Source of the DNA: an uncultured Vicinamibacterales bacterium
GTDB lineage: Bacteria > Acidobacteriota > Vicinamibacteria > Vicinamibacterales > JAKQTR01
DNA: 64,000 nt
Reading direction: 5' to 3'
NCBI GenBank assembly: GCA_964481395.1
Contig: CAYZYG010000009.1
Location: 959 to 64,958, forward strand
A program made the position numbers and the translations under genes. Of the stretch, positions 2,599 to 48,184 are shown piece by piece. Numbering within the stretch: position 1 is the stretch's first letter; the number at the start of each line of letters is the position of its first letter. The notes under the pieces are model-generated. The model ran no database searches. It saw only the letters and a list, made by a program, of their open reading frames with translations, and was not told the origin of the DNA.

Positions 2599-2608
2599 GC
2601 TCTTCGAT

Positions 2609-2720
2609 GAACAGAAGACAGAATACAGAAGACAGGAGACAGAAGGAAAGGAATCGGCCTGATCGGCCGACTGTTGCTATTCTGTCCCCTGGCTTCTGTC
2701 TACTGTCTCCTGTCTCCTGA
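2609..2720. repeat. Composite palindromic element: AGACAGA-type heptamer arm, central hairpin TCGGCC-TGATC-GGCCGA, complementary TGTCTCC-type heptamer arm
   Basis: Left arm 2611-2645, central hairpin 2654-2670, right arm 2680-2719. The right arm is the approximate reverse complement of the left arm. Confidence 0.8.
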
Positions 2721-2728
2721 CGGAGTCC

Positions 2729-4936
2729 TTACTTCCAATACGGCCTCGCCAGCTCCACCACGTCCGGGAAGTCGATCCTGAACTTCTTCAGCGTGGCCTC
2801 CGTCGGCACCCCGTCCGTCGTCCAGCCTCGGCGCTTGTACACCGCATCCACGAGCTTGTTGTAGCGGTCCATCCGCCACTCGCGGTGCAGCCTCACTTTC
2901 TCCTCGGTCGTTTTGCCGGCCGGATCGATCCCGACGATGTCCTTGAGCTGCTTGTCGTAGCGCTCGGATCGTGACTCGTACTCTTCATTGGTGACCGGTC
3001 CGACCGCCCTGTACGGCGGGATGTCGAACTCGCGCCCGCCCTGGCCCATGCGCAGGTTGAACATCCGCTGGAAGTTGTAGACCGCTTCCGACTGCTCGAT
3101 CAGGCTCTGGCGGTCGAGCGGCTTCCCGGTAATACCCGTGTACAGCTCGAGGTAGTTGTTGACGTGCGCCGGAACCTTGGCGGCCTCAGGCCCGGGGTAC
3201 ATCTTCGCGTTGTCCGGGGGCTCGATGTCGTTCCACGGCAGCTTGCACAGCCCCTGCAGGCTGAACCACGTTCGGAACAGGGGGAAGTAGTGCAAGGCCT
3301 CGGCCTTGTCCTCGAAGGTGGGGATCTGGTTGTTCACCATGTCCATGAAGATGAGCCACGCCTCATCGTGCTGGGGGCCCTTGTTGGCCAGCGCGTATCC
3401 GCCCTGCTGCGCCAGCGACTCCTTGGACATGTACTGGGAGATCTCGAGGCCCTTGATCTGCATTCCGATGTCGCGGATCAGCTGCGGATCTCCCCATCCC
3501 TTCTCGATGAAGAGGTTCTGCATGTAGCGGACGCCCTTGCCCACGATCACGCCGAAGCCCTCGCCACGGGCCATGTCGTGGAGGAGCTGCACCTCGGACT
3601 CGCCGTTGCCCCAGCCGAGGTCGAGGCCCCCCGTGCGCTCCTTGTTCAGGATGCCCCGGTCGTAGCACTCCATCACGAACGCGCAGGCCGTGCCGTACGA
3701 GATCGTGTCGATGCCGTAGGTGTCGCAGTAGAAGTTCACCTCGAGCAGCCAGTCGGGATCGAACAGCCCGCAGTTGGACCCCAGGCCGGCCGCGTTCTCG
3801 TACTCGGGCCCGTCCACCGTGACGATGTGGCCCTTGTACGGCCCCGTGCGCACGACATGACCGTCCGCGCCCTTCGAGCAGGCCATGCCGCACCCGTACC
3901 AGCACCGGTCCGGCACCGCCTGTGTGAACCGTTTGTCCCACACCTGCGAGTCGATCTTCGGCGTGTCCGGGTGCTTGCCGTACTGGAAGTTGTAGACCGG
4001 CAGCAGGTCGTACGCGTCCATGATCTCGACGAGGTGCGCCGTGCCCTGCCGGCGCATGTGGTTCTGCTCGTCGTCGAAGTCGTGGATTTCCTTGTTGATG
4101 ATCCGCCCGACCTTGATGACCTGCTGGATGTCCGCCGCGTTGTTCAGGTCCGGCCCCATCTTGAAGCCATGGACGACGAGCGCCTTCAGCTTCTTGTCGC
4201 GGAACACCGTGCCCGTGCCGCCGCGGCCGGCCTGCTTCAGGCGGACGGCCCCGCGCTTCGGGTCGTACCAGGAGAAGTTCAGGCAGCCCATGTAGGCCGA
4301 CTCGGCGGCCTTGCCCGCTGACACGACCGCCACGTTCTGCATGTCCTTCGGATTGTCCGCGTACATGTGCGTGAAGATCTCGGCGGCGATGTGACTGTCG
4401 GGCGTCTCCTCGGGCGCCTCCTCGATGGTGATCGTGCCCTTCGGGCCGTCGATGACCACGATGACGTCGGTCTTCGCCTTGCCCCGGATCTCGACGGCAT
4501 CGAAGCCGACGAACTTGACGAGGGGCCCGAAATACCCGCCCACGTTGCAGTCGATGGGAATGCTCGTCATCGGCGACAGCGACACGACGATCGACTTGCC
4601 CGAGCCTGCGTACTGCGTGTTGCCCGCCAGGGGCCCCGGACTGATGATGATCTCGTTTTCGGGGTCGTTCCACTTCGTCTGCGGGGTGATGGCGTGCCAG
4701 AGATAGTAGAGGCCGAAGCCGCGGCCGCCGGTGAAGACGTCGATCATCTCGTCGGTGATGGCCTTCTCGCTGATCGCCATCGTGTCGAGATCGATGAAGA
4801 GGGTCCGCCGGGTGTAGCCCCGGACCGGCTGGCTCGGCGTGAACGGCACCTCGACGAGCACCTTGTGCGCGGCTTTCATCGCCGGCACGTCGTCGGCGTA
4901 GTTGGTTCGGACCTTGTAATCGTAGGTTACGGACAT
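2729..4936 (-). CDS. aor: Aldehyde:ferredoxin oxidoreductase family (tungsten/molybdopterin AOR), long form of 735 aa
   Basis: N-terminal GYTRRTLFIDLD...FTGGRGFGLYYLW and an overall AOR-family pattern across the full-length ORF. Confidence 0.9.
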   Translation of the reverse strand: MSVTYDYKVRTNYADDVPAMKAAHKVLVEVPFTPSQPVRGYTRRTLFIDLDTMAISEKAITDEMIDVFTGGRGFGLYYLWHAITPQTKWNDPENEIIISPGPLAGNTQYAGSGKSIVVSLSPMTSIPIDCNVGGYFGPLVKFVGFDAVEIRGKAKTDVIVVIDGPKGTITIEEAPEETPDSHIAAEIFTHMYADNPKDMQNVAVVSAGKAAESAYMGCLNFSWYDPKRGAVRLKQAGRGGTGTVFRDKKLKALVVHGFKMGPDLNNAADIQQVIKVGRIINKEIHDFDDEQNHMRRQGTAHLVEIMDAYDLLPVYNFQYGKHPDTPKIDSQVWDKRFTQAVPDRCWYGCGMACSKGADGHVVRTGPYKGHIVTVDGPEYENAAGLGSNCGLFDPDWLLEVNFYCDTYGIDTISYGTACAFVMECYDRGILNKERTGGLDLGWGNGESEVQLLHDMARGEGFGVIVGKGVRYMQNLFIEKGWGDPQLIRDIGMQIKGLEISQYMSKESLAQQGGYALANKGPQHDEAWLIFMDMVNNQIPTFEDKAEALHYFPLFRTWFSLQGLCKLPWNDIEPPDNAKMYPGPEAAKVPAHVNNYLELYTGITGKPLDRQSLIEQSEAVYNFQRMFNLRMGQGGREFDIPPYRAVGPVTNEEYESRSERYDKQLKDIVGIDPAGKTTEEKVRLHREWRMDRYNKLVDAVYKRRGWTTDGVPTEATLKKFRIDFPDVVELARPYWK

Positions 4937-5223
4937 GGCCGTCTCCAGATGGAACGGACGGCCGTGCCCGGGGATCCGGCGATCCCGGCAACGGACCGTT
5001 CGTGGTGTGTGCAGCGTCGGGGGCTGCCTGCTGCCGGGGAGGAACGCCGCCCGGCAGCGTACCGGACAGTCTACCAGAACGCCGGCACCCGCAGGAGAGC
5101 GGCTGGGCGCCGCGGGGCGCCGCTGGGCACCGCTTCCGCGGGGGTGTGCAGGCCATGCGGAGCGGTGGCAGTTGACCTGACTCGGGGTATCCTTGTGGGC
5201 TCCGACTGTGAAGGAGGGTACAG

Positions 5224-5406
5224 ATGAGCGCTGTGAAGAACGAGGAGTTGTTGACGGCTGGTGCCATCGCCAAGGCTGTTGGTGCGTCCGACGCCAAGGT
5301 GAAGAAGGCCATCAAGGACCTGGCCATCCAGCCCAAGGCCAAGAAGGGCGTGTGCGCCTACTACGGGGCGGATGCGGTTGCCAAGGTGAAGAAGGCGCTG
5401 GGGTAG
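5224..5406 (+). CDS. Small Lys/Ala-rich protein (60 aa), possibly DNA-binding
   Basis: Strong RBS GAAGGAGGG 6 nt upstream of the ATG. GC3-rich codons. Internal repeat G-A-x-D-A-K-V-K-K-A occurs twice. Confidence 0.65.
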   Translation: MSAVKNEELLTAGAIAKAVGASDAKVKKAIKDLAIQPKAKKGVCAYYGADAVAKVKKALG

Positions 5407-10698: not shown

Positions 10699-13600
10699 TC
10701 AACGAACCTGCTTGAGCAATTCCGCGACGGCGGTCTCGAGCTGCTGGTCCTTGCCCGCGCTCATCACGGCGAACTCGTTCATCACCGTGATGTCGGGCTC
10801 GGTCTGGCGGTTCTCGAGGTACTGGCCCGCCATGTTCTTTACGCCGAGCGGCGGAACGCCCCAGCGTGTGCTGCCGTCCTGGAGCGACTCCCAGCCGGCG
10901 AAGGTGCACGTGCCCGGGACGGGCATGCCGACCAGCTTGCCGATGCCGAGCACCTTGTAGGTGTCGGCGTAGCAGTGGCCGTCGCTGTAGTTGGCTTCGT
11001 TGGCCAGCGAGATGCTCGGCTTGGTCCAGCGGAAGTTCGGCTCGAAACCGTTGCTGCGCGTATCGTTCGTGTAGTCGAAGAATCGCTTGCCGCTGAGGAA
11101 CATCGCGAGGTCGGCCACCAGGTCTCCGCCGCCGTTGAAGCGCGTGTCGACCACGAGCCCCTTCCGCGTGGCGAACTTGCCCATGGCCTCCTCGAAGGTG
11201 GTGCGGTAGGCGCCGTCGTTCATGCCCGGCACGTGGATGTAGCCGAGTTGGCCGTTGCTGAGGCGGTCCACCTCTTCCTGGTTGCGGCGGACCCAACGCG
11301 TGTACAGCAGCCTGTTCTCATCCCCGAGCGAAACGGGCGAGACGACGATCTCCCGTCTCGTGTCGCCCTCGACAATCACGAGCAGCGTCTTCCTGCCGGC
11401 CTTTCGATTCAGATACCGCGCCGGATCCCTGTCGGGCGCGATCGTCTCGCCGTCGATCGACTCGATGATCGCGCCCGGCTTGACGTTCATCCCCGCCTTG
11501 TCGAGCGGGCCGTTCCTGATCACCTCGACGACCTTGATGCCTGGGCCGGCGTACGCCTGGTCGTAGAAGATGCCCAGCGACGCCGTGGCATCGCCTTCGG
11601 AGCCGGATTGGCTGTAGCGGGCGCCGCTGTGGCTGACGTTGAGTTCTCCCAGCATCTCGCTGAGGACCTCCGCGAACTCGTACCCGTTGCCCACGTGCGG
11701 CAGGTACTTCTGATAGACGGGCTTGAGGCCGTCCCAGTCGATGCCGTGGTAGCCCGCCGTGTAGAACGTCTGCTTCGTGCGCCGCCAGACGTGCTCGAAC
11801 ATGAACGCCCGCTCGCCGGCGGTATCGAGGGTCATCTCGCCCTTGATGGCGATGCTCTCGCGCTTGCCGCCGGCCGGATCGATCTTCGAGAGGCTCCCGT
11901 CGGCCAGCAGGAAGATGTTCTTCTGGTCCTTGTCCCACGCCAGACTCCCGCCGTTGGCGTTGAGGGTGACCAGCATCTTCGTTTCCCGCGTGCGGAGCGT
12001 GGTCGTCCAGAGGTTCATGCCGCGCTCGAATCGGGCGAGGTAGTAGAGCGTCTCCCCGTCCTTGCTGACGAGCGCGTCGCCGAGAGACGAGGAGTGAATC
12101 GTCAGACGGGCCTTCCGCAGATCGAGGCCGTCGAACTCGATGTCGATGCCCTCGGGCTTCGCCTCGGTCTTCTCGTCCTTGGCGGCTTCCTTCTTCGCGG
12201 CGTCGGCCTTCTCCTTGTCCTTCTTCTCCTCGGCTTCCTTGACGAGGGCGAAGTCCTCCTTGCTCAACCGGAAGCGGTCCCAGGCTTCCTGGGTGAAGAA
12301 CATTCCGTAGACGTCGGCCTGCGCGCTGCCCGACTGGGCCACCGACTTGAGGCCGTCGCGGTTGCTGAACCACAGCATGGCCTTGCCGCCGAGCACCCAC
12401 TTGGCGCGCCGGTCGTGAAACCCGCTCTCGGTCAGGTTGATGACCTTGCCCTTGCCGTCGGTGCTGACGAGACCGACCTCTCCGGGTGCGAGCCCCGGGA
12501 CCGCGTAGTCGAAGAGGATCCACTTGCCGTCCGGGCTCCACTGGAAATACTGGTCCGCGTCGGAACCGGAATAGAGATGGTCGTTCGTCAGCAGCGTCCG
12601 GCTCTGCTTCGTCTCGACGTTGTAGACCTTGAGCGTCGTCCGGTTTTCGACGTAGGCGATCTCCTTGCCGTCGGGCGAGAACTCGGGCTGGTAGTTCTCG
12701 TGCTCGTTGGCGATGAGCGGCGTCTCCTTGATGATGGTGGACGCGTAGAAGTAGGGCTCCTCATCGCGGGCGCGCCGGGCCTCCATGATGCGCCAGCGGT
12801 TGCCGCGCTCGGAGGCGTACACCAGCGCCTTACCGTCCGGCGAGAACGTCAGGCCGCGTTCCTGCTCTGGCGTGCTGGTGATGCGCTTGGTGACCCCGCC
12901 CTCGACGCTGGTCACGAAGACCTCGCCGCGCGAGATGAAGGCGATCTCCTTGCCGGTCGGCGACACCGCCATCTCACGCGCGTTGCCCGTAATGGGCAGC
13001 ACACGCTCGTTGTTGGCCCTGGTGTCGGCTGCGATGGTCACCTTGACCTTCTCAGGGCCGCCCGAACCCCGCTTCGTGTAGAGTTCGCCGTCCCGGCTGA
13101 AGCAGAGGGTGCCATCGGCCGCCGTACTGAGGAACCGGACGGGTACGCCCTTGAACGACGTGACCTGTTCCGAGCGGCCGCCCTGCAGGCTCATCTTGTG
13201 CACGTTGAATGTGCCGCTCTCCTCGCTGAGGTAGAAGAAGGCCTGATCGTTGTCCGTGAGCACGGGCGTGCGGTCCTCACCCGCGAAGGTCGTGATCTTC
13301 CGGTGGGTGCCGGCGGCGATGTCGTACACCCACACGTCGCGGGCGATGGCAGACGAGTGGTGCTTGCGCCACTCATTCTCGCCGCCCTTCTTGTCGTGGT
13401 AGAGGAAGAACTTCCCGTCCCGGCTCAGCGCCACATCTTCAGCGGGGGTCGTCAGCACCTGGGTGACCCGGCCGCCGGTCACGGGCACCAAGTAGAGTTC
13501 CGGCTGCGACCCGGTGGGGAAGCTCCGGTTCGTCGCGGCGTCCTGGCGCGCGGCACCGAAGTAGACGCTCTTCCCGTCGTTCGCGAAGGCGTAGGGGTAC

Positions 13601-13941
13601 TCGGCGGCCGAGTGGTAGGTCAGACGCGTCGGTTCCCCGCCCTCGGCCGGCATCACGAAGACGTCGAAGTTGCCGTGCCGGTCGCTGGCGAAGGCGATCT
13701 GCTTCCCGTCGCGGCTCCACACGGGCATGTAGTCGTGGGCCTCGTGAGACGTCAGCGCGACGGCCGCGCCGCCGGAAGCGGGGACCCGATACAGGTCGCC
13801 CTCGTAGGTGAAGACAATCGTTTTCCCGTCCGGAGAGATGGCCGGGTACCGGCACCAGAGGGGCGTCGTCGGGGCGGTCGTGACGGGGAAGGCCGCCACG
13901 AAGAGGAGGCAGAGGGTCAGGACGGCTGTTCGCTTGGGCAT
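10699..13941 (-). CDS. Tricorn-protease-like S41 peptidase with TolB-like beta-propellers, exported
   Basis: Signal peptide, repeated PxxSPDGKxIxF propeller motifs, and a C-terminal S41 region (GYIHVPGM...VVDTRFNGGGD). Confidence 0.9.
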   Translation of the reverse strand: MPKRTAVLTLCLLFVAAFPVTTAPTTPLWCRYPAISPDGKTIVFTYEGDLYRVPASGGAAVALTSHEAHDYMPVWSRDGKQIAFASDRHGNFDVFVMPAEGGEPTRLTYHSAAEYPYAFANDGKSVYFGAARQDAATNRSFPTGSQPELYLVPVTGGRVTQVLTTPAEDVALSRDGKFFLYHDKKGGENEWRKHHSSAIARDVWVYDIAAGTHRKITTFAGEDRTPVLTDNDQAFFYLSEESGTFNVHKMSLQGGRSEQVTSFKGVPVRFLSTAADGTLCFSRDGELYTKRGSGGPEKVKVTIAADTRANNERVLPITGNAREMAVSPTGKEIAFISRGEVFVTSVEGGVTKRITSTPEQERGLTFSPDGKALVYASERGNRWRIMEARRARDEEPYFYASTIIKETPLIANEHENYQPEFSPDGKEIAYVENRTTLKVYNVETKQSRTLLTNDHLYSGSDADQYFQWSPDGKWILFDYAVPGLAPGEVGLVSTDGKGKVINLTESGFHDRRAKWVLGGKAMLWFSNRDGLKSVAQSGSAQADVYGMFFTQEAWDRFRLSKEDFALVKEAEEKKDKEKADAAKKEAAKDEKTEAKPEGIDIEFDGLDLRKARLTIHSSSLGDALVSKDGETLYYLARFERGMNLWTTTLRTRETKMLVTLNANGGSLAWDKDQKNIFLLADGSLSKIDPAGGKRESIAIKGEMTLDTAGERAFMFEHVWRRTKQTFYTAGYHGIDWDGLKPVYQKYLPHVGNGYEFAEVLSEMLGELNVSHSGARYSQSGSEGDATASLGIFYDQAYAGPGIKVVEVIRNGPLDKAGMNVKPGAIIESIDGETIAPDRDPARYLNRKAGRKTLLVIVEGDTRREIVVSPVSLGDENRLLYTRWVRRNQEEVDRLSNGQLGYIHVPGMNDGAYRTTFEEAMGKFATRKGLVVDTRFNGGGDLVADLAMFLSGKRFFDYTNDTRSNGFEPNFRWTKPSISLANEANYSDGHCYADTYKVLGIGKLVGMPVPGTCTFAGWESLQDGSTRWGVPPLGVKNMAGQYLENRQTEPDITVMNEFAVMSAGKDQQLETAVAELLKQVR

Positions 13942-14482
13942 CGTTCGCTCGCTGGATGATCACGGACCGTAGACGCGGTGTCACACCCACGCGGGTCCTG
14001 TCGCCGGACAGCCCACCGGTGCTCAGACCCACAACCATGACCACGGCTGGGGGTCTTCCGCCCCGGCGGGCGCCCATCCGGCGCCACCCGCGCGGGCTGC
14101 GCGAACCGCTCCAGATTGTAGACAGTAGACAGTCGGAAGCGCGAACGCAAGTGGACGCGTCCGCGCAGGTCGTGCCGTGGTGCAACCCCGTGGTGCGACC
14201 CCCGGTCTTGTCCCGACTTGAACGTCGGTTCCCGAATGCCGATCCGTACTTGGGGCAAGCGGCCCCTATCGTGCTGCTTGCCAACAGCAGATTTCGTGCG
14301 ACTCGTCCAGTGAGTCTGCACACTGTTTGCGCCGCGGAGAATCCTCCGTGCAATGTGCGCCGGAGGTCTTGACCGCCTGATGCCGGACGTGGAGGATGTT
14401 CATGCCGCGTATGTGCTGGCGTGGGGCGGTGCCCACTCTGGCCTGTTTTCGCCCGAAGTCGTGGCGCCGAACCGGTGAGCCC

Positions 14483-19557: not shown

Positions 19558-19667
19558 GGCCACTCCTCTACGCGAGTGCCGGAAGCGGGGCACGGCGCGT
19601 CATCGCAGTGTAGCAAACACGGAGGAGGATCGAACGGGGATTCCCGGATTCGTGAGACGATGAAGGC

Positions 19668-20195
19668 ATGTCGATCCTGAAGATGCTGGGTTTCGGTCGC
19701 GGGGGCGACCAGGGCCGGTCCGGCAACACCGATACCGTGCGGCGCATCGTCGATGCCCTGCAGCACATGGAGCCCGACCGCGCGCGGTACGTCGCCGCGT
19801 TCGCGTACATCCTCGGTCGCGTGGCCATCGCCGACCACGAGGTCAGCGACGCCGAGACGCGTCTGATGGAGCGGATTGTGATGGAGCGGGGCGGGCTTCC
19901 CGAGGAGCAGGCCATCATCGTCGTCCAGATCGCGCGCAGCCAGAACCAGCTCTTCGGCGGAACCGAGGACTTTCTCGTGACGAGGGAGTTCAACACGCTC
20001 GCCAGCTACGAACAGAAGCTGGCCCTCATCGACTGCCTCTTCGCCGTGTCGTCGGTGGACGGCACCATTGCCCTGAGCGAGGAGCAGGAGATCGCCCGGA
20101 CGGCCCTCGAACTCAAAGTCGAGCACGCCGATGTGGTCCGGGCCCGCGTGGCCTACCGCGAGTATCTGGCCGTCCTGAAGCGCGACATGCCCTGA
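19668..20195 (+). CDS. TerB-family (tellurite-resistance TerB-like) protein
   Basis: The patterns AFAYILGRVAIADHEVSDAETRLM and LIDCLFAVSSVDGTIALSEEQEI resemble the tandem TerB helical repeat. Confidence 0.7.
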   Translation: MSILKMLGFGRGGDQGRSGNTDTVRRIVDALQHMEPDRARYVAAFAYILGRVAIADHEVSDAETRLMERIVMERGGLPEEQAIIVVQIARSQNQLFGGTEDFLVTREFNTLASYEQKLALIDCLFAVSSVDGTIALSEEQEIARTALELKVEHADVVRARVAYREYLAVLKRDMP

Positions 20196-28121: not shown

Positions 28122-28374
28122 GCAACAGTTCTCCGTCAGGCAGGCGAGGGGCGGCCGACGCGGAGAACGTTATCACGGTCCGGGGGATGACCGGTACACG
28201 AAGACCGGGCCTCGAGATCCGGGAGCCGGGATCCGGGATGCGGTCCTGCACGGCACAGACGCCTGGAACGGGCGCCGACAGGGCCGGTGGTACACGCCTC
28301 GACCGAGGGTCACAGACGAGCCATGCCGCGGCCTGCGGGCCCGCCTGTAGAATGATGGTCTCTGAGGAGCAGTC

Positions 28375-29343
28375 GTGTTCAACCAGACTGAGGAAGCGTC
28401 AATCCGCGCGTGGAACGACGGGCTCGACGGCCACGTGACGCTGCACGTGCTGCTGAGCGACGACACGAGGAGCGAACGTGTCGAAGCTTTTGCCAGGCAG
28501 TTCGCGGCGCTCGCGCCGCGCGTGGGCCTGGCCATCGACCGGAGGCCAGGCGCCGAGGCTCCATCGATGCACGTGAGCCGTCGCGTGCGGTACCTGGCCG
28601 TCCCTGTCGGGACCGAACTGGCGCCCTTTCTGGAGTGCGTCCGCCGCTTATCTCCATGCGTGACGGACGCCTCCCGATCCGCACTCGCCCGCGAGCCCGG
28701 TTCAGGCGACGCGGACGTGCACCTCTACGTGTCGCCGCACTGCCCGCATTGTCCGGTCGCGACGCGGGCGTTGTTCGGGCTGCTCGATGAAAACCCGGCG
28801 GCGAGACTCGTGGTCGTCGACGTGGACCTGCTGCCCGAAATGGCGACGCGCGACGCCGTTCGCTCGGTGCCGACGGTGCTGGTGGGCCGTCACTACCGCT
28901 CGACGGGGGCGATCTCGGTCGACGAGATTCGCCGGGCGCTGGCGAGCACCGAGCCCGATGCGGCCGCTATCGGTCGGCTGCTCGACGGGGGCGAGGCCGC
29001 AGCCGTGGCGGACATGATGGCTGAGGCCGGGCGGGTGTTTTCCACAGTCCTCGACCGCGTGGCACACGAGACGATGACCGTCCGGCTCGGGGCCATGGCC
29101 GCCCTGGAGCGGCTCATCGAGATCGCGCCCGAGGTGGCGGCCACCGCGGAGTCCGGGCTCTGGGAGCGGATCGCCGGCACCGGGCGCGAGGCGACGGGAG
29201 ACGTGCTCTACATGCTCGGTGAGGCAGGGACACCGGCCACCGTGCCGTGGCTCAGGGCGTTCCACGAGGCGACGGCGGATCCGGAGCTGCAGGAGGCGGT
29301 GACGGACGCCCTCGCGCGGCTGGCCGAGCGCGCAGAGCGCTGA
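28375..29343 (+). CDS. Thioredoxin/glutaredoxin-fold protein (CPHC) with a C-terminal HEAT-like segment
   Basis: HLYVSPHCPHCPVA...VRSVPTVLV is a classic Trx-fold active site plus cis-Pro region. GTG start as in the ORF track. Confidence 0.7.
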   Translation: MFNQTEEASIRAWNDGLDGHVTLHVLLSDDTRSERVEAFARQFAALAPRVGLAIDRRPGAEAPSMHVSRRVRYLAVPVGTELAPFLECVRRLSPCVTDASRSALAREPGSGDADVHLYVSPHCPHCPVATRALFGLLDENPAARLVVVDVDLLPEMATRDAVRSVPTVLVGRHYRSTGAISVDEIRRALASTEPDAAAIGRLLDGGEAAAVADMMAEAGRVFSTVLDRVAHETMTVRLGAMAALERLIEIAPEVAATAESGLWERIAGTGREATGDVLYMLGEAGTPATVPWLRAFHEATADPELQEAVTDALARLAERAER

Positions 29344-29437: not shown

Positions 29438-31390
29438 CTAGCGGGCGGCCTTGGCGCCAGCCGGCACGACGTACACCGACTCGAGCACCTTGTTCGATTC
29501 CTCGTCCTGCACGAAGGCCACGACCACGAGGTTGCCGGTGATCTCGTGCTTCTTCTGGCGGAACCGGTACTGGCCGTCCCGCTCCTTGACCTCGAACTCA
29601 TCGAGGTGGGCCTTCGCGTCGGCGACGGCCTTGGCGATGTCGAACGTGTACTCGAACGTCCCGCCCTTGCCCGGCTGGAGGGCGAACCCCAGCACAGCCT
29701 TCGCGTCGACGGCCATGCTGCGCACGACCATGGGGTGGAAGCGTTCGCCGTTCTCGCCGCTGTAGGTGACCGACTCCTCGGCGAGCACGATCTGCAGTCG
29801 CGGCTTTACCGCCTTTGCCGAGAGTCTGGAAACCGTGGCCCTGACTGTGACCGTCGCCGGCGCCGCGGTCGCCTGGAGGGCGATGCGCGCCCCCGGCTGC
29901 TCGGCGAGACGCTTCTCGATCGCGGGATCGACCTTCGACTCGAAGATCGACTTCGCGTTGTCGGCGCTGCCGCCGCCGCCGTCGCGGTCACCGTCGAAGA
30001 AGTAGCTGGGCGAGCTGTTGACGGCGTAGTACTGCCGTCGCGCGACCGTGGCAGGATTCACCATCGGGTCGGGCTGGGGAATGTGGACGTGGTAGTTCAG
30101 CAGGATGAAGTCGTCCCGGGTGTAACGTTCGTGCGCGGCATCGAAGGCGAGACCCGCCCCCACGCACGGAGGTCAACCCGCGCCGGGGAAGACCTCGGCC
30201 AGCACGGTCTTCCCGGTCGACCTCGCCCCGGCCTTCCGGGCGAACGGGGTGACGGCGAAACGCGTGTGATCGCGGCGGTAGCGCTCGTCGAGCATCGTCT
30301 CGAGACCGTCGAGCGAGCCGTTGTGCGTCTTGCTGTACACGGCCTCGAGTTCCTTGGTCTCGTCGGCCGTGATGCGGCCCGTGAGTGCGAGGGCACTCAG
30401 GTACTCGAGTTGCTGGACGTCGTTGCCGGCCTTCTTTGCGACCTCGGCCAGCGTTCGGGCAACCGGCGCCATGGCGCTGGCGGCCGGCTTGGCCGCGTAG
30501 GCCTCGTTCAGTGCCTTTACGCCTTCTGCGTCCTTGCCCCGCTTGACGAGAATCTGTCCGAGCGTCGCCAGCGCGGAGGCGCGGACCGACTTGAAGGCGG
30601 CCCGCATGTCATCGTCCGTGGGCGCCTCCGGCCGCGTGGGCGGGCGTGGCGGCGTGGCCGGCCGAGGGGGCGCGGGTGGTGCGAGACTGACCTGTGTCAC
30701 CCCGCCCTTGGTCGAGAACCGGTAGGCGGGGGGCGGAGGCGCGGGCGTTGACGGTTCGGCCGCCGGCTTGTCAGTCGCGGGTCCTCCACCGGCCGCCGCC
30801 GGTTTCGGCTGGGAGGCCTGCGCCGTCATCTTCTCGTAGTTGGCGAGCGTGCGCTCGTACTGCTTCCGGCGCATGTCCATGTAGGCGCGCTCGTCCATGT
30901 CCGCGAGCGCCTTTCTGGCGAACTCCTCCGCTTCTTCGGAGTAGATACCCGCGTTCACCAGCCGAGACGCGAGGTTGGCGTACGTGGAGTAGATGGGTGT
31001 CGTGTCCGCTCGCTTCTCCGCCTCGGCGATCTCCGCCTCCGTGCCGGCGAGGAACTTCGCGCGTGAGTCCTTGTAGGCGGCGAGCACGGACGTGGTGATC
31101 TGGCTCCTGGCCATGCTGAGGAGCTGCGGCGTGGCTTTCGGGAAGTCGGCGATGAACTTCTCGAGCGCCTCCACACGCTTGAGCGGATTCGTCTCGCCGG
31201 CGGCCGCGTTGAAGGCCTTGGCTTCGTCGGGAAGCTCTTTCGCCGGCTCGGCCGGCTTCTGGGCACCGGCCGCGGCGGCAGGCTTCTGGTCGGGCGGCTT
31301 CTGCTGCGCCGTGTCCTGGGCGCGGGGCCACGACGTCGCCGCGAGAACGAGGGCGATGATGAGAACGGTGAATCGACGGAATCGTGCCAT
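29438..31390 (-). CDS. Exported Pro/Ala-rich helical protein fused to a thioredoxin-like domain with a candidate selenocysteine redox motif U-P-P-C (in-frame TGA at 30173-30175)
   Basis: Track ORFs 30173..31663 and 29438..30163 share one frame and are separated only by TGA. The junction reads KTVLAEVFPGAG-TGA-PPC-VGAGLAFDAA. ATG at 31390 has RBS AAGGAG and a signal peptide. A SECIS-like hairpin follows the TGA. Confidence 0.6.
30130..30168 (-). promoter_or_regulatory. Candidate bacterial SECIS hairpin downstream of the in-frame UGA
   Basis: With U of UGA as +1: lower stem 8-13 / 41-46 (CGUGCG/CGCACG), upper stem 15-21 / 27-33, apical loop G22 G23 U24 C25 U26. Confidence 0.5.
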
Positions 31391-31466
31391 GGGGTGCTCC
31401 TTGAGCTGAGCGAGGAACAGTGCCGGGCATTCTAACATCGCCGGGGGCGGGCCCAAACCTTCGCCA

Positions 31467-32021
31467 TTATGGCGTTCGGGCGGGAGCGCGGCCTGCCATC
31501 CGAAGCAGTGTCGTGACCGTGCGCCAGTTCCGCGCCGTGGCGTCGACGCCAAGCAGGCGCTCGACGCGGTCGCCGAGCCGGGAGGGCCCGAAGCCATCGG
31601 GCGTGTAGAGGTAGAACGCCTTGCCGTCGAGGGCGAAGCGCTCGGTCGGCGACCGACGCGCATCCATGGCCACCAGGTCCGGGCTCGGGGGTCTACGCGC
31701 CAGGAAGAAGACGTGCACGCTTCGCGGGCTGGCGTCGGCCTCGGGAAACGGGTTGCCCGCGGCGGCGCGACGAAGCTCCGCGCCGGTGATCAGGAGGACG
31801 CGCGGCTCGAAGCCGCGCGTGCGGGCCACAGCCGCCGCGACGCGCGCCGGCAGACGACGGGCCGCCTCTGCCGGGCAGGAGAAGATCACGTTCCCGCTCT
31901 GGATGTAGGTGCGGACGTGGCGACACCCCTCGGCCTCGAACACCTCCCTGAGTTCCTTCATGGGCAAGGTGTTCCGGCCGAGGACGTTGATGCCGCGCAG
32001 CAGGGCGATGTAGGTGGGCAT
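31467..32021 (-). CDS. DUF1697 family protein
   Basis: MPTYIALLRGINVLGRNTLPMKELREVF is the family N-terminal signature. Confidence 0.85.
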   Translation of the reverse strand: MPTYIALLRGINVLGRNTLPMKELREVFEAEGCRHVRTYIQSGNVIFSCPAEAARRLPARVAAAVARTRGFEPRVLLITGAELRRAAAGNPFPEADASPRSVHVFFLARRPPSPDLVAMDARRSPTERFALDGKAFYLYTPDGFGPSRLGDRVERLLGVDATARNWRTVTTLLRMAGRAPARTP

Positions 32022-41695: not shown

Positions 41696-43918
41696 TCAGT
41701 ATCTGAATAGATAGCTCAGCTTCACGAAGACCTGACGGCCTACGTTCGTGCTCGCCGCGTCCGACCGGCGGACCGGTCGGGACATGGCATCCAGCATCCA
41801 GTTCTCGTACCTGTCCGTGTACCCCACGTACACAGCCGTCCAGGGATTCACGAGGTAGGTGACCAGCAGGTCGTATCCGAGCCGGCGCTCGTCTTCGAGA
41901 TCCACGAGGGCCGCGTTCGGGAGCACCGATTCGTAGTCGACGATCAGGCGGGCCGAGAGCTCACGGGTGAACTGGTAGCTCGCGCGGGTCCGCAGGATGT
42001 GATTCGAGAAGATCCGGCTGCCCGCGCAGCGGGGGCAGGCGCCCTCCTGGTGCCTGAGATCGAGCTTCGTATACAGATAGGACTGATCGACCCGCACGGG
42101 CGGAATCGGCTTGAACGAGAATCCGACCTCGGCCTCGATCGAATCGGCCAGAAAGGGATCGAGACCCTCCGCCGGGTAGTAGTTGATGGCCGTGCCCCAC
42201 TCCGCGGACCCGTTCAGGCCGAGCCAGGAGAGCCGCTCCGTCGACGCATAGACCACGGTGGACTGACGGCGGAAGTCGGTGTCCTCGAAGCGCTCGAAGA
42301 TGTTCCAGTGACGGACGCCGATCTCGGTCGGGCCGTCGAGCTGGATCTCGCCGCCGGGCTCGACGGTCCACTCCTCCAGTTCGCCGGCGAAGTTCCAGAT
42401 GGCGCTGCCTTCGAGGCCGACGCCGACGTTCTGGACGTTGCCCTTCGTGAAATGCCAAGTGTAGTCGGCTTCGGACTCGACCTCCCGGATGTCCCGCCTG
42501 CGGACGAATCCGAGGTCGGTCTGGAAATCGGGGCTGGCCTGGAAGTACCCCGTCGAGAAGTCGAAGCCGCGCCCCTCGCGGCTCAGTCTGGCCGCGATCA
42601 CGTTACCGGAGCGATCGGAGCCCTCGACCGGGACGGTCTGGCTGCCCACGGCCTGCCCCTCAACGGCCCAGTTGTCGTCGATCCGCCACCGCCCGTCGGC
42701 GGCGAAGACCCGATTGGCGGTCGGACCCCACTCGCGGTCGGTGACTATCGCGCCCAGGTGGGACTGGTTCGAGAACTCGCGCTGGACGCGCAGCACCGCC
42801 ACGGCAGCGGTCTTCTCGTGGCGGGAGTCGCTTTCCGGCACGAGGCTTCCAGGCGCATCGTCGTTCATCACGAGGCCGCCGAACGCCCATCCGCCGGCTT
42901 TACCGGTCACACGGCCACCGATCAGTGGGTCGGCCACACGGCGGGAGAAGAAGAGGTTGACGGGCGTCTCGAAGTAACTGGCGTTCTCGATGAAGAACGG
43001 ACGCTTCTCCGGGAAGAACACCTCGAACCGCTGATTGATCGTGACCTGGGGCTCGTCCGACTCGACCTGGCTGTAGTCCGGATTGACGGTCACATCCAGC
43101 GTCACCGTGTCCTTGATGACGGCCTTCGTGTCGATGCCGACCCGGGCCGACCGCTCGGTGACGTAGCCGTCCGGTTCCAGGATGCGATCGGCGGCGAAGT
43201 TGCCGTACGGGATGACCAGCAGGTTGCGGCCCGGGGAGATGCCCTCCAGGCCCGTGAGGCGGGCCATCTGCGGCCCGAAGCTCGCCAACCGCCGGGTAAT
43301 GTACGGCCAGAACGAGAATTCGTTGAGACGAGGCACGATACGGCCGAACGCGACACCCCAGGTCTGCCGGCTGTCCGTGCTGAAGCGCAGGCTCTTGAAC
43401 GGCACGGCAATCAGCACCGCGTACCCGAACGACGTGCGCCGGCCCTCCGATGACCACAGCGTGTCGAAGCTGTAGTCGTCGTCCTGGCCTTCGGCCGTAA
43501 TGCCGTCCATCTGAATGCCCAGAGGATTCACCAGGAACATGTACGAACGGCGGCCGTCGCCGTACGTGTCGAGCACCAGGCCCACGATGTCGTCGCCCAT
43601 GATCGATTCGCGCTTCGTCAGGTTGGCGCGAATCCTGGCCGGATCGTCGCGGCAGAGGTAGACCGCGTAGAAATGCCGATCGTCGTACGACACGTAGACG
43701 TCGGTCTCGACCTGGGAATCCACCCCGTCCCCCGGCTCGCGCTGCTTGAAGCCGGTCACCTTGAGGCCCGGGGGCACGGCCTGGCCGTCCAGGTACCGCT
43801 CCAGCACGGGAGGACTGTCCACCCGAGGAATCGTGACCTCGGGCGGCGGAGCCTGAGCTGCCGCAGCGGCGGCCCCCAGGGTCAGCATGGCAGTCAACGT
43901 CAGGAGTCGAGTAGTCAT
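41696..43918 (-). CDS. DUF5916 / carbohydrate-binding-family-9-like outer-membrane protein
   Basis: Signal peptide. The N-terminal pattern YVSYDDRHFYAVYLCRD resembles CBM9-like/DUF5916 proteins. The C-terminal ...KLSYLFRY is a typical beta-barrel terminus. Confidence 0.75.
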   Translation of the reverse strand: MTTRLLTLTAMLTLGAAAAAAQAPPPEVTIPRVDSPPVLERYLDGQAVPPGLKVTGFKQREPGDGVDSQVETDVYVSYDDRHFYAVYLCRDDPARIRANLTKRESIMGDDIVGLVLDTYGDGRRSYMFLVNPLGIQMDGITAEGQDDDYSFDTLWSSEGRRTSFGYAVLIAVPFKSLRFSTDSRQTWGVAFGRIVPRLNEFSFWPYITRRLASFGPQMARLTGLEGISPGRNLLVIPYGNFAADRILEPDGYVTERSARVGIDTKAVIKDTVTLDVTVNPDYSQVESDEPQVTINQRFEVFFPEKRPFFIENASYFETPVNLFFSRRVADPLIGGRVTGKAGGWAFGGLVMNDDAPGSLVPESDSRHEKTAAVAVLRVQREFSNQSHLGAIVTDREWGPTANRVFAADGRWRIDDNWAVEGQAVGSQTVPVEGSDRSGNVIAARLSREGRGFDFSTGYFQASPDFQTDLGFVRRRDIREVESEADYTWHFTKGNVQNVGVGLEGSAIWNFAGELEEWTVEPGGEIQLDGPTEIGVRHWNIFERFEDTDFRRQSTVVYASTERLSWLGLNGSAEWGTAINYYPAEGLDPFLADSIEAEVGFSFKPIPPVRVDQSYLYTKLDLRHQEGACPRCAGSRIFSNHILRTRASYQFTRELSARLIVDYESVLPNAALVDLEDERRLGYDLLVTYLVNPWTAVYVGYTDRYENWMLDAMSRPVRRSDAASTNVGRQVFVKLSYLFRY

Positions 43919-43924
43919 GAGTTC

Positions 43925-45322
43925 TCAGAAGCCCGCCGCGCCGATGGTCTTCCGGTCCACCTGGGGCGCGTATTTCTTCGCAAGGCCCTCGATCTCAGAT
44001 GCCTTCCCGATGAGGACGAACACCATGTTCTCGAGGGGGAAGTACTGTTTGATGACGCGGCTCACGTCGGCCATCGTCGCGGCGTCGATTCTCGCGTAAT
44101 ACGTGTCGATCTCGCGCTCGTCGAGACCGTCGGCCACCAGGCCCGCCAGCGCGTCGGCAAGCTGGTCGCTGGTCTCGATCTCCGGCGGGAACTGGCCCTT
44201 CAGGTACGTCTTCGCCGACAGCAGGTCGTCCTCGGTGATGCCCCGTTCGTGGAGCTGCTTCAGCGTTTCCAGCGTGAGATCGAGTGCCTGCTCGGTGGAC
44301 GCGTTCCGCGTGTACGAGTTGATCGCGAACGGCCCCTTCGCCCTCCACTGGGCGAACGACGACCCGGCGCCGTACGTGAGGCCGGACTTGATGCGCAGCG
44401 CGGTGTTGATCATCGACGTGAAGCGCCCGCCGAACAGCGTATTCACGATTTCGACGACGACGCGATCGGGGTTCGACCGGCTGATCCCGACGTTGCCCAG
44501 ACGGAAGAACGTCTGCGTCGAGTCCGGCTTGTCGACGAGCAGCAGCCGGCGTCCCTTCACGGGCACCGCGTCGGGCAGCGACACGACGGGCGCCTTTTTC
44601 GCGGGCCATGCGCCGAAGCGGGCCGCGATGGCCTTCTCCATGTCCGCAGCGGCAAAGTCGCCCACCACCGCCATCACGGTCGAGGAAGGCACGTAGTGCG
44701 TGTCGTAGAAGCGCGCGACATCGTCGCGCGTGACGGACGCGAGGGAGGTCTCGTCGCCGCCCGCAGGTCTGGCGTACGGGTGATTCCCATAGAGGTACGC
44801 GTTGAAATAGGTGCCGATGACGCCGGCGGCCCGGTCTTTCGCCGCCTTGATCCCGTCCACCCGCTGCGCGACGAGCTTCGTGACCTCACCGGCGGGAAAC
44901 GTGGGATGGAGCATCGCATCGGCGACCAGATCGAGCCCCTTGTCGAGGTCCTTCTTCATGAACTCGGCCGACGCCTGCGTCGAGTCGACCGACACGCCAG
45001 CCCCGAACGAACCGCCGATGAAGTCGAGTTCCTCCGCGAACCGGTCCGCCGATCGCGTGGGCGTGCCCTTGCGCAGGAGCGCCGCCGTCAACGAGGCCAC
45101 ACCTTCCTTGCCCGCGGGATCGGCGACCGAGCCGGCGCGCACGACGACGCTGAGGCTGACGATCGGCACCTCCCGCTGTTCCATGAGGAGCAGGGTGAGC
45201 CCATTGGGCAGGACGACCTTCTTGTAGGGCGGGAACTTCAGCGACGCCGGCTGCGCCAACGCAGGAACGGCCATCACGAGGACGAACAGGAGGCTGGCTG
45301 CACTTCTGGCGATGTTCTTCAT
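43925..45322 (-). CDS. M16-family peptidase, non-catalytic-type subunit (no HxxEH)
   Basis: Signal peptide and M16 fold pattern LPNGLTLLLMEQREVPIVSL. I could not find an HxxEH motif. Confidence 0.85.
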   Translation of the reverse strand: MKNIARSAASLLFVLVMAVPALAQPASLKFPPYKKVVLPNGLTLLLMEQREVPIVSLSVVVRAGSVADPAGKEGVASLTAALLRKGTPTRSADRFAEELDFIGGSFGAGVSVDSTQASAEFMKKDLDKGLDLVADAMLHPTFPAGEVTKLVAQRVDGIKAAKDRAAGVIGTYFNAYLYGNHPYARPAGGDETSLASVTRDDVARFYDTHYVPSSTVMAVVGDFAAADMEKAIAARFGAWPAKKAPVVSLPDAVPVKGRRLLLVDKPDSTQTFFRLGNVGISRSNPDRVVVEIVNTLFGGRFTSMINTALRIKSGLTYGAGSSFAQWRAKGPFAINSYTRNASTEQALDLTLETLKQLHERGITEDDLLSAKTYLKGQFPPEIETSDQLADALAGLVADGLDEREIDTYYARIDAATMADVSRVIKQYFPLENMVFVLIGKASEIEGLAKKYAPQVDRKTIGAAGF

Positions 45323-45331
45323 GTCGGCCTC

Positions 45332-46678
45332 CTACTTCTTTTCGCCTTCGACTTCGGGAACGAGTGTGGCCACGGTCCGGTTCTGTTCGGTGAAGTACTG
45401 CCGCGCGACCCGCTGGACGTCGGCTGCCGTGACCCTGGCGAAGTCGTCCGCTGCCGTGAACAGCTTCCGGTAGTCGCCGAAGAACACCTCGTAGGTGCCG
45501 ATGGCGTTGCTGCGGCCGCTGATGGTCCGGACCTGGCGGTAGAAGCCCGAGATCAGGATGTTCTTCGCCTTCTCCAGTTCCTCCGGGGTTACCGCGCCCG
45601 TTTTGACGCGGTCGATCTCCTCGTACACGGCCTTCTCGACCGCAGCCGGGTCCACCCCGGCCTTGGGCTGGGCCGTGATCGTGAAGAGCGTCGGATCGAA
45701 CGCCCAGTCGGAGCCGCCGCCGACGCTCAGAGCGATCTGGTCCCGATCGACCAGCCGTCGGTACATGCGCGAACTCTGGCCCGAGAAGAGCACGGTCTCA
45801 AGCGCCTGGAGCGCGTAGTAGTCGGGATGCGCCGTCTGCGGCACGTGCCACGCCATCATCACGATGGGCAGTTGCGCGAACTTCCTGACTTCGACCCGGC
45901 GCTCGCCGAGTTGTTCGGGTTCCTTCGTCCGGACTGCTGGCGGGGGAGCGGACGAGGGGATCGGCTCGATGTACTGCTCGGCCATCTTGACGATCTCGTC
46001 GAACGTGACGTCGCCGCTCACGACCATCGTGGCGTTCGACGGCGAGTAGCCCATTCGGAAGTGACTCTTCAAATCGTCCATCGTCCAGGCTTCGATGTCG
46101 GACATCCAACCGATGACGGGCCACTGGTACGGATGGGCCGTAAACGCGGCTGCCGAGAGCTGTTCGTTCAGCAGGCCGAAGTTGTTGGCGTCGACGGCCT
46201 GGCGGCGCTCCGACGCGATGACGCCGCGCTCGGACTCGACGATCTCGGGATCGAAGGACAGATGCTGGATGCGGTCGGCTTCGAGGTCGAAGATGAGTTC
46301 GAGCGCCGAGCGGGGGAACCAGTCCTGGTAGACCGTGACGTTCTCGCTCGTGTAGGCGTTGTTCGATCCGCCGTTGGCCTCCATCACCCGGTCGAACTCG
46401 CCCGGGCCGTACTTCTTCGCGCCGTTGAACATCATGTGCTCGAAGAAGTGGGAGATGCCGGTGATGCCCGGCCGCTCGTTGCGCGATCCGACGCGGTAGA
46501 AGATGTAGAGCGCCACGCTCGGAATCGAGTGGTCCTCCTGCACGAGGATCTTCATCCCGTTCTTGAGCGTGTGCGTCCTGACCTCGAACTCCTGCGCCGC
46601 GGCAGGGAGGGTCGCCGCACAGAGCGCAGCGGCTGCCAGCAGCGCCCTCGCGGCATTCGGTGTCTTGCGTCTGTTCAT
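45332..46678 (-). CDS. M16-family zinc peptidase (pitrilysin-like), catalytic subunit
   Basis: HFFEHMMFNG is the inverted zinc motif HxxEH. Signal peptide present. Adjacent to its partner subunit. Confidence 0.9.
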   Translation of the reverse strand: MNRRKTPNAARALLAAAALCAATLPAAAQEFEVRTHTLKNGMKILVQEDHSIPSVALYIFYRVGSRNERPGITGISHFFEHMMFNGAKKYGPGEFDRVMEANGGSNNAYTSENVTVYQDWFPRSALELIFDLEADRIQHLSFDPEIVESERGVIASERRQAVDANNFGLLNEQLSAAAFTAHPYQWPVIGWMSDIEAWTMDDLKSHFRMGYSPSNATMVVSGDVTFDEIVKMAEQYIEPIPSSAPPPAVRTKEPEQLGERRVEVRKFAQLPIVMMAWHVPQTAHPDYYALQALETVLFSGQSSRMYRRLVDRDQIALSVGGGSDWAFDPTLFTITAQPKAGVDPAAVEKAVYEEIDRVKTGAVTPEELEKAKNILISGFYRQVRTISGRSNAIGTYEVFFGDYRKLFTAADDFARVTAADVQRVARQYFTEQNRTVATLVPEVEGEKK

Positions 46679-46789
46679 GTTCGCTCCGGTCCTGTGAATC
46701 CCGTCTCGCCCAGCCCTGTGTCCGTGCCGGCACTCGGGGAAGGTTGCTTCGAATCCCGATCCCCGACCCCCGACTCCCGGATTGTGGCC

Positions 46790-48184
46790 CTATGCTCGCA
46801 GCAACGACACCACCCGATCGACCAGGTTCGTTGCGAAGACCCCACCCGACTCGAGCATCGCCCGGCTCTGGAGGAGCGCATCGGCCACCTCAGGGAATGT
46901 GAGTGGGACGCGGCTCTCCGCCTCCGCCGTGCCTCCGCCCGTGACCGCCGTCCGGGCCAGCCTGCGATCCAGGTCCGTCATGCCGCGTCCCGCGACGACC
47001 GCCTGCGCGACGCCCGCCAGCAGCAGGTGCGGGTGTGCCGAGCCGTCGGGCAGGCGAAACTCGATCGTACCGGGACTGGTCTGCCTCCCGCGCTCGTCGG
47101 TGGGGACGATAGGGATGCGAACCAGCGCCTTCCGGTTGTAGCGCCCCCAGGTGATCGCGCTCGGGGCCTCCTTGCCCTGTCCGAGTCGGACGAACGAATC
47201 GCGGCTGCGGTTCCCGAAGGCCATCAGCGCCGCCCCATGCGTGACGAGGCCTCCGATGAGCCACGTGGCCTCCGGCGCCAGTGTGCCGTCCGCCGTCGTG
47301 TGGGGCAGATAGTCCCCGTCCCGCATCGATGCGAAATGGAAGTGCATGCCGCTGCCCGCGTGGCCCTTTCGCGCCATGGGCGCGAAGCTGCACAGCATCC
47401 CGGCCCGGTGAGCCAGATTGCGGAGCACCCACTGGGTGAGCACCACGCCGTCCGCAGCCTCGGGCAGCGGGCGCAGCCACAGCTCGATTTCGTGCTGCTC
47501 CCAGACGCGCGGGTCCGAGGCATCCGACTGGACGTAGCCGACCTCGGCATGGCCGTACTTGACCGGCACACCCATTTCGGCGAGATGAACCAGCGCCTGC
47601 CGCCGCAGCGACTCGCCAAACACGAACGGCGAGGTCGCATGATAACCGCGCTCGTTCGCGCCGTAGGCGTCCGCGTCCTGGCCGCGGTGGCCGAGGAAGT
47701 ACTCGATCTCGCCGAGCGCGTGCAACTCGGTGCCCGTCTCCGCGACCAACCGCCGGTACGCGGTGCGGACAATGGTGTCCGGCGATTCCGCCAGCGGGGT
47801 GCCCTGGCGATTGAAGTGGCTGCAGAGCAGCGCCATGGCTGGCTCATGGGCGAACGGATCCAGGAACGCCGACGACAGTCGCGGCCGCAGGACGATGTCG
47901 GACGCGCCGACGGGAATCCCCAGTTCGCCGAATAGACTGGAGCCGTCGGCCCGTTCGCCGCCGGCCAGCACGTCGAGGAGATGGGCGCGATCGCGCGGAA
48001 CGAAATCCAGCGTCTTCAGCCAGCCGTCGCCGCCGACGTGCATCAGCGAGAGGAGGCGGATCCCGCGGTCGTGGACGACGCCGGCAAGGTCGTCGGCCGT
48101 CCAGTCCGCCGGAGGCTTGCCAATGAGGCGGTGCAGCGTCTGTACCGGGGCGCGATGGTCGGGGTCGGTCTGGACTGAGGACAT
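46790..48184 (-). CDS. Glutamine synthetase-family protein (GlnA-like / gamma-glutamyl ligase)
   Basis: ATG at 48184. The segments HALGEIEYFL, GYHATSPF, EVGYVQ and GSGMHFHFS resemble GS catalytic-domain beta-strands. Confidence 0.75.
   Translation of the reverse strand: MSSVQTDPDHRAPVQTLHRLIGKPPADWTADDLAGVVHDRGIRLLSLMHVGGDGWLKTLDFVPRDRAHLLDVLAGGERADGSSLFGELGIPVGASDIVLRPRLSSAFLDPFAHEPAMALLCSHFNRQGTPLAESPDTIVRTAYRRLVAETGTELHALGEIEYFLGHRGQDADAYGANERGYHATSPFVFGESLRRQALVHLAEMGVPVKYGHAEVGYVQSDASDPRVWEQHEIELWLRPLPEAADGVVLTQWVLRNLAHRAGMLCSFAPMARKGHAGSGMHFHFASMRDGDYLPHTTADGTLAPEATWLIGGLVTHGAALMAFGNRSRDSFVRLGQGKEAPSAITWGRYNRKALVRIPIVPTDERGRQTSPGTIEFRLPDGSAHPHLLLAGVAQAVVAGRGMTDLDRRLARTAVTGGGTAEAESRVPLTFPEVADALLQSRAMLESGGVFATNLVDRVVSLLRA

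Follow-up and report, generated by a model that had tools for sequence, protein, structure and literature searches.

We analysed a stretch of DNA of 64,000 nucleotides (nt) from an uncultured Vicinamibacterales bacterium (contig CAYZYG010000009.1; the whole stretch is called the window below), in which a TGA triplet at 30175-30173 on the minus strand is followed by a hairpin that resembles a bacterial selenocysteine insertion sequence (bSECIS) element. The TGA lies in frame between a 496-codon open reading frame (ORF; 30173..31663) and a 241-codon ORF (29438..30163), and the two ORFs share one common frame. Read with selenocysteine (Sec, U) at the TGA, from an ATG at 31390 that is likely the start codon to a TAG stop at 29440-29438 (minus strand), this frame gives a 650-residue product whose predicted layout runs from a signal peptide through a helical/low-complexity N-terminal region to an Omp28/DsbA-like thioredoxin-fold domain at the C-terminus. 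The peptide across the recoded site is VFPGAG-U-PPCVGAGLAFDAAHER, and the wider read-through context, ...TVLAEVFPGAG-U-PPC-VGAGLAFDAAHERY..., holds a UxxC motif. The features of the gene are as follows, with the U of UGA on the minus strand numbered +1 here and throughout.

29438..31390, minus strand: whole putative selenoprotein gene, 650 codons including Sec406, frame continuous across the TGA
31397..31402, minus strand: Shine-Dalgarno-like AAGGAG, 6 nt 5' of the ATG at 31390, read from the sequence
31319..31390, minus strand: predicted signal peptide MARFRRFTVLIIALVLAATSWPRA, end approximate, inferred from the translation; similar hydrophobic leaders occur in Sec and cysteine (Cys) homologues
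30173..30175, minus strand: in-frame TGA read as selenocysteine, residue 406, +1..+3; TGA in 54/54 Sec-type loci, TGC/TGT in 99/99 Cys-type loci
30164..30175, minus strand: U-P-P-C redox motif, +1..+12, aligned with CPPC or CGPC of Cys homologues

The G+C content at third codon positions was 0.83 and 0.91 on the two sides of the TGA, high as in real genes (the window is 68% GC). Among the other stop-to-stop ORFs picked as likely genes in the window, TGA was the commonest ordinary stop, indicating that the genetic code is not reassigned. The locus is very probably one 650-residue selenoprotein gene, and not two hypothetical ORFs.

We then compared the recoded codon among relatives. A protein search with the C-terminal part gave 367 matches (the best 120 listed), and 80 loci each were fetched from genomes and from metagenomes, the genomic ones nearly all from Acidobacteriota (Vicinamibacterales, Blastocatellia and Bryobacteraceae), and the codon was compared in 153 related loci. 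Sec-type loci (54, giving 47 distinct sequences and 34 distinct 48-mers) carried TGA and never TAA or TAG, whereas Cys-type loci (99, giving 96 sequences) carried TGC or TGT at the same codon. The surrounding motif was G-[U/C]-[PG]-P-C, with the protein conserved on both sides of it. Cys forms carried both the N-terminal region and the C-terminal domain in one uninterrupted ORF, which had the same signal-peptide start. By this alignment of codons and motifs, the locus family is a textbook Sec/Cys pair.

The 46 nt from 30175 to 30130 on the minus strand, UGACCUCCGUGCGUGGGGGCGGGUCUCGCCUUCGAUGCCGCGCACG, match the letters quoted in an earlier sequence-only reading, which had proposed a 7-bp upper stem, a 6-bp lower stem and a GGUCU apical loop downstream of the UGA. 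All of the pairs proposed there exist in the sequence (upper stem: 21-27 GC, 20-28 CG, 19-29 GC, 18-30 GC, 17-31 GU, 16-32 GU and 15-33 GC; lower stem: 8-46 through 13-41). Folding the 46-mer with RNAfold yielded a minimum free energy (MFE) structure identical to the centroid structure, at −22.1 kcal/mol. The apical 5 bp (17-21/27-31) and the GGUCU loop that they close at +22..+26 agreed with the proposal, whereas the lower part differed: the MFE fold favours a 9-bp lower stem (8-16 with 38-46) over the two G·U pairs, with a 6-nt 3' bulge at 32-37. The structure as proposed (7-bp upper stem 15-21/27-33 with two G·U pairs, 6-bp lower stem 8-13/41-46) came to −16.5 kcal/mol and is a valid alternative fold. 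A 91-nt context fold retained the apical 5 bp and the GGUCU loop, the ensemble probability of the apical stem was 0.92 (context +1..+60), and the 23-nt minihelix alone had an energy of −10.7 kcal/mol. The parts of the hairpin are located as follows.

30155..30161, minus strand: upper stem 5' arm, G15-G21 (apical 5 bp = 17-21), from RNAfold; 95% of cells paired in the alignment, RNAalifold consensus 16-22/26-32
30150..30154, minus strand: apical loop G22 G23 U24 C25 U26 in the E. coli fdhF register, with G23 (invariant) and U24 as the presumed SelB-contact bases
30143..30149, minus strand: upper stem 3' arm, C27-C33, from the fold; pair 21-27 changed from GC to CG in three relatives (L002, L004, L093)
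30160..30168, minus strand: lower stem 5' arm, C8-G16 in the MFE fold (C8-G13 in the earlier version); 75-79% paired in relatives
30130..30138, minus strand: lower stem 3' arm, C38-G46 in the MFE fold (C41-G46 in the earlier version); 75-79% paired in relatives

Synonymous variation was strongly reduced at the hairpin in the Sec forms. For codons +4..+10 (nt 13-33), the synonymous entropy among the 47 Sec sequences was 0.15, 0, 0.34, 0, 0.41, 0 and 0.15, compared with 1.1-1.8 at the fourfold-degenerate codons just outside nt 13-33 in the same sequences, and 0.7-1.8 at the same codons in the 96 Cys sequences. Two glycine codons that are minority choices here were fixed, namely GGG (usage 0.25) in 47/47 Sec sequences and GGU (usage 0.11) in 34/34. 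The mean pairing probability of the apical stem was 0.82 in Sec forms versus 0.09 in Cys forms at nearly equal GC (0.70 versus 0.68), and the minihelix energy was −10.9 versus −5.3 kcal/mol. Similarly, the upper stem was 95% paired across the 34 distinct 48-mers, versus 42-65% for slid controls; G23 was present in 34/34 and U24 in 33/34 of these sequences. One compensatory pair was observed, G21-C27 to C21-G27 in L002, L004 and L093, brought about by the silent changes GCG to GCC and CUC to CUG. The sequence-only reading had asked whether TGA-containing orthologues conserve the stem by compensatory changes where Cys-containing ones do not; the stem-loop is indeed kept in the TGA forms and mostly not in the Cys forms, whereas compensatory change is seen in a single pair. 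These results show that RNA-level selection acts on exactly these nucleotides.

The same selection is visible in the protein. Codon +7 (nt 22-24) specifies aspartate (Asp) in 95/96 Cys forms, and Gly (GGU), Ser (AGU) or Gly (GGC) in all Sec forms. Since Asp is encoded by GAY, it cannot supply a G at +23, and its replacement by Gly or Ser places G23 in the loop. The replacement was seen in two separate Sec clades. A Cys form from a Bryobacteraceae metagenome-assembled genome (MAG), L041, reads GUGGGGGCCGACCUGGCCUUC over codons +4..+10 after its TGC and forms the stem with a probability of 0.98; its stem is that of the Sec-type L002, and its loop is GACCU versus GGUCU, two substitutions from a SECIS-like element. 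L041 therefore carries the stem without the SECIS loop, indicating that the helix comes partly free with Ala-Asp-Leu-Ala codons, and that it is the loop that marks the Sec forms. With G23 gained through the loss of a 99%-conserved Asp, and with a Cys relative that already has the stem, selection on overlapping RNA and protein codes becomes visible.

We consider it highly probable that nt +8..+46 after the UGA at 30175-30173 (minus strand) are a canonical in-ORF bSECIS element directing selenocysteine into a secreted thioredoxin-like protein. The claim that a bacterial SECIS supports the Sec reading of the UGA is borne out by the contrast between TGA and Cys forms, the synonymous constraint and the Asp replacement. 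In the proposed mechanism, a ribosome would near the UGA with the apical minihelix still folded (stem +15/+17 to +31/+33, GGUCU loop +22..+26). The C-terminal domain of SelB would bind the minihelix, mainly via G23 and U24, and the bound SelB·GTP·Sec-tRNA(Sec) complex would be tethered at the A site, such that the UGA is decoded as selenocysteine and not as a stop. Translation would then yield a secreted protein of 650 residues, presumably a thiol/selenol-disulfide oxidoreductase, in whose Omp28/DsbA-like thioredoxin-fold domain Sec406, as part of a UPPC motif, would occupy the active-site position.

We compared the element with the SECIS of E. coli fdhF, to which the sequence-only reading had referred its numbering. 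The 46-nt fdhF string was found exactly in 5419/5426 complete E. coli genomes, inside fdhF, where the annotation is 'formate dehydrogenase H subunit alpha, selenocysteine-containing' and the TGA is codon 140. E. coli fdhF has GGUCU at +22..+26, as has the window element, and in its MFE fold A21-U26 closes a GGUC loop at 22-25 while U17/U18 bulges from the 5' arm. The placement of GGUC at +22..+25 given in that reading was correct by the 5419 E. coli genomes, this control fold and the literature (PMC8659212). The E. coli determinants are a 17-nt minihelix (nt 15-31) located 11 nt after the UGA with conserved U17, G23 and U24, and SelB contacts U17 and G23 (PMC8659212). Both elements lie directly 3' of an in-frame UGA within an ORF; both place the GGUCU pentamer at +22..+26 with G23 and U24 in the apical loop, start the upper helix at about +15, 11 nt past the UGA, and have a less important lower helix extending back toward the UGA. 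They differ by one nucleotide in the loop closure: fdhF has a GGUC tetraloop closed by A21-U26, whereas the window element has a pentaloop closed by G21-C27, or, per RNAalifold, a G23-U24-C25 triloop closed by G22·U26. RNAalifold paired 22 with 26 as G·U in 21 sequences and as A-U in 11, and the loop may accordingly be modelled as a G23-U24-N25 triloop. The 5' arm of fdhF carries the bulged U17/U18, whereas that of the window element is uninterrupted and G-rich, with two G·U wobbles. The host proteins are unrelated, one a molybdoenzyme and the other a predicted secreted thioredoxin-fold protein. The comparison supports an element that would work like that of fdhF without copying it.

The element was also compared with the Zhang and Gladyshev consensus bacterial SECIS model (bSECISearch), as summarised in Fig. 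2 of PMC13188914. That model describes a loop of 3-9 nt whose first two positions include a G (G[G|U]), an upper stem of 4-16 bp, a UGA-to-apical-loop spacing of 16-37 nt and an MFE of −7.5 kcal/mol or lower (PMC13188914, Fig. 2). The window element agrees with every structural constraint, with a stem-loop after an in-frame UGA, a 5-nt loop starting with GG, a stem of 5-7 bp, a spacing of 18 nt (+4..+21) and −22.1 kcal/mol for the 46-mer. The model is permissive, and in this window of 68% GC a loose version of it fits the sequence after 46% of TGA triplets; agreement with the bSECIS rules is necessary, not diagnostic, in this composition. Among the 1494 TGA triplets of the window, both strands included, 14 were followed by a 5-bp stem in the exact register, and the stem register together with G23 U24 occurred after this one only (1/1494). 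Synonymous recodings of the same peptide, drawn with window codon usage, gave the stem with G23 U24 in 2.2% of cases.

Several observations weigh against a bSECIS at this site. The bulged U17 that E. coli SelB needs is missing: a G stands at position 17 and pairs with U31, the 5' arm is unbulged in both the MFE and the consensus fold, and U14 is unpaired only in the alternative fold of the sequence-only reading. The lower stem is well formed in the window but poorly conserved, being only 75-79% paired across relatives and missing from the RNAalifold consensus. Covariation is thin: RNAalifold finds 16-22/26-32 unaided with a covariation term of only −0.16, the three sequences with the compensatory change (L002, L004 and L093) are adjacent on the tree and perhaps reflect a single event, and the rest of the stem is invariant. 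Compared with dinucleotide shuffles, stability was unremarkable, with z = −1.44 (46-mer) and z = −0.72 (91-mer). The authentic fdhF SECIS scored z = −1.33 with the same tool, indicating that the shuffle z-score cannot separate a SECIS from background. About 20% of synonymous recodings and 9/96 Cys forms can form the 5-bp stem, so the peptide itself accounts for some of the capacity to form it. Rfam yielded no family at gathering score across the whole window and, in 29900-30400, no SECIS family up to E = 10, the matches at that level being chance hits to miRNA, sRNA and flavivirus-stem-loop families; to our knowledge, short bacterial SECIS elements within ORFs are not covered by any general Rfam model, and the null result says little. 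Finally, neither a tRNA-Sec nor a selA, selB or selD gene turned up in the 64-kb window or in the flanks of 30 Sec-type loci. In the window, Pfam annotation covered 30 of the 35 ORFs picked as likely genes and showed no SelA, SelB or SelD domain; absence from 64 kb proves nothing.

With the Sec machinery not found in the window or in the 30 related loci, the UGA could be recoded as Trp, Cys or Arg, with the hairpin stimulating near-cognate read-through without SelB; stable downstream hairpins can enhance read-through in other systems. We regard this as highly improbable, because the UGA stands where a CxxC motif has its catalytic Cys, in a classic Sec/Cys pair, and because selection is strongest on precisely those loop bases, G23 and U24, that determine SelB recognition, placed as in fdhF and gained at the cost of a conserved Asp. 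A generic roadblock hairpin would have no need of specific loop bases.

It is less probable still that the hairpin is a by-product of V-G-A-G-L-A-F codons in a GC-rich genome, with no RNA function and any Sec directed by another element. The unremarkable shuffle z-scores, the stem potential of recodings and Cys forms, and the ease with which TGA triplets in the window agree with the loose bSECIS rules would all be in line with such an origin. Against it, synonymous sites are frozen only at nt 13-33 and only in TGA forms, the minority Gly codons GGG and GGU are fixed in 47/47 and 34/34 sequences, a silent double change keeps pair 21-27, and the replacement of Asp by Gly or Ser tracks TGA in two clades.

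Public gene calls (NCBI, ENA, JGI and Logan) divide the gene into an N-terminal fragment of about 400 amino acids (aa) and a 241-aa fragment from a GTG at +13. Nearly all of the top 100 matches to the C-terminal part were about 241 aa long, the length of the ORF called from this GTG, and the 12 matches read by sequence all began there, indicating that the gene callers met a stop at the same place in those 12. When the full 650-residue sequence served as query, the matches were confined to N-terminal fragments of about 400 aa that bore the names 'hypothetical' or 'TPR repeat protein', and no full-length entry was present among the best 120 matches of either search (P0001-P0120 and P0121-P0240). 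From the TGA to the GTG, the Pro codons (CCG/CCC/CCA/CCT) and the Cys codon (TGC/TGT) differ among sequences without altering the amino acid, indicating that this stretch is translated. Although the database entries are split in this way and a GTG is available at +13, we give hardly any credence to the TGA as a true stop between two genes, one for an N-terminal product of about 405 aa and one for a 241-aa product from the GTG, with a hairpin that is incidental or regulates re-initiation, because the 99 Cys-type loci are single ORFs with Cys at the codon, the Pro-Pro-Cys before the GTG is conserved and translated, the CCUCC preceding the GTG is not a Shine-Dalgarno sequence, and the split would cut the CxxC and the first strand off the thioredoxin-like domain.

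Under the preferred interpretation, a single selenoprotein gene with an in-ORF bSECIS, the corrected annotation applies also to the more than 100 protein clusters (at 90% identity) that make up the family in soil, wetland and sediment metagenomes; roughly 740 family members were detected. A secreted protein with a probable thioredoxin fold, from Acidobacteriota of the Vicinamibacterales type, would thereby join the known users of selenocysteine. Acidobacteria have been recorded with selenoproteins (3 families, 4 proteins; PMC1794560), and no selenoproteins of Vicinamibacterales were found in the literature searched. The finding matters chiefly because the mis-annotation is so widespread and because selection at the RNA level can be seen so clearly to override a conserved residue.

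We characterized the domain carrying the UPPC motif by profile searches. Pfam gave a just sub-threshold Omp28 match and a weak Redoxin match to the window protein, both centred on the UPPC motif, and NCBIfam gave the Omp28 lipoprotein family at 24.9 bits and NF045500, 'Omp28-related selenoprotein', at 17.6 bits versus its 200-bit cut-off. All of the Cys homologues tested (40/40) matched NF045500 and NF033782 below the cut-offs (best E = 3.8e-16 and 5e-13), and most of them also matched Pfam Omp28, DUF1223 and DSBA. Single-sequence and profile searches of PDB returned sub-threshold thioredoxin/redoxin chains only (profile E 0.08-0.85). NF045500 corresponds to 'hypothetical protein GOS_C', a UxxC protein, in a 2026 review (PMC13188914); GOS_C was originally reported, with 74 Sec sequences and a Trx-like fold, in the Global Ocean Sampling data (PMC2398784). 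A literature search on Omp28 as a selenoprotein found nothing relevant. The window family and GOS_C both have UxxC near the start of an Omp28-like domain, which in the window family has a probable thioredoxin fold, and both have Cys-form homologues; the window protein and the 40 Cys homologues all match the NF045500 profile over the same N-terminal stretch (35/36 to 186/208 in two displayed alignments). They differ in that the window protein (17.6 bits) and the Cys homologues score far below the 200-bit cut-off, in the extra N-terminal region of about 380 residues in the window protein (a 'TPR repeat protein' per JGI), and in their sources, soil/wetland Acidobacteriota (Vicinamibacterales) versus marine plankton. 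Judged by these profile matches, the window protein is a distant relative of the Omp28-related selenoprotein GOS_C. Among the Cys-type loci, one from Acidobacteria MAG fen_186 (L058) holds two domain paralogues about 1.9 kb apart, on the same strand and in different frames.

A second small TGA clade consists of L047 (2980-3027; a Thermodesulfobacteriota single-cell genome) and L154 (1480-1527), with the motif U[PH]PC-TAIGLAF. In a neighbour-joining tree this clade was nearer to the Cys forms than to the main Sec clade. Its hairpin has a GCCA/UGGC stem shifted by about 1 nt and G22 G23 in a 6-nt loop, and Gly replaces the Asp. The hairpin is weak (z about 0) and does not strictly have a G in the first two loop positions, making it suggestive only as a SECIS. 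It seems that each of two conversions, one in the large Vicinamibacterales clade and one in L047/L154, made a G22 G23 hairpin in the same register from existing codons. We tentatively propose, at slightly under even chances, that the locus belongs to an uncatalogued, abundant selenoprotein family of soil/wetland Acidobacteriota, combining the N-terminal helical region with an Omp28-like UPPC domain, in which two independent Cys-to-Sec conversions each cost the invariant Asp. If this proposal holds, the family would be a natural record of the birth of an in-ORF SECIS and of an RNA signal overriding protein-level constraint.

The window neighbours of the gene (Trx_3/HEAT, DUF1579, PIN, fucose isomerase and helicase) are not conserved beside it in the related loci. 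The convergent neighbour at 28366-29343 (plus strand) ends 95 nt from the stop of the selenoprotein gene; its product combines a Thioredoxin_3 domain, which contains a CPHC motif, with HEAT-like helical repeats after it. A candidate second recoding site at 45334-45332 (minus strand) was rejected, as the stop there is TAG, and beyond it come a Shine-Dalgarno sequence (GGAGG), an ATG and a new signal peptide. The surrounding region, 43925-46678 (minus strand), holds two long same-frame ORFs with one stop and three codons between them, that is, ordinary tandem genes, which may encode M16-type peptidases; the long ORF opposite them at 43454-47935 (plus strand) is a GC-rich shadow frame. Elsewhere in the window, genes with no evident link to the SECIS include an aldehyde:ferredoxin oxidoreductase (AFOR_N/AFOR_C) gene beside a small ThiS-family gene at 2401-5311 (minus strand), a tricorn-like protease at 10699-13959 and a TerB domain protein at 19656-20195.

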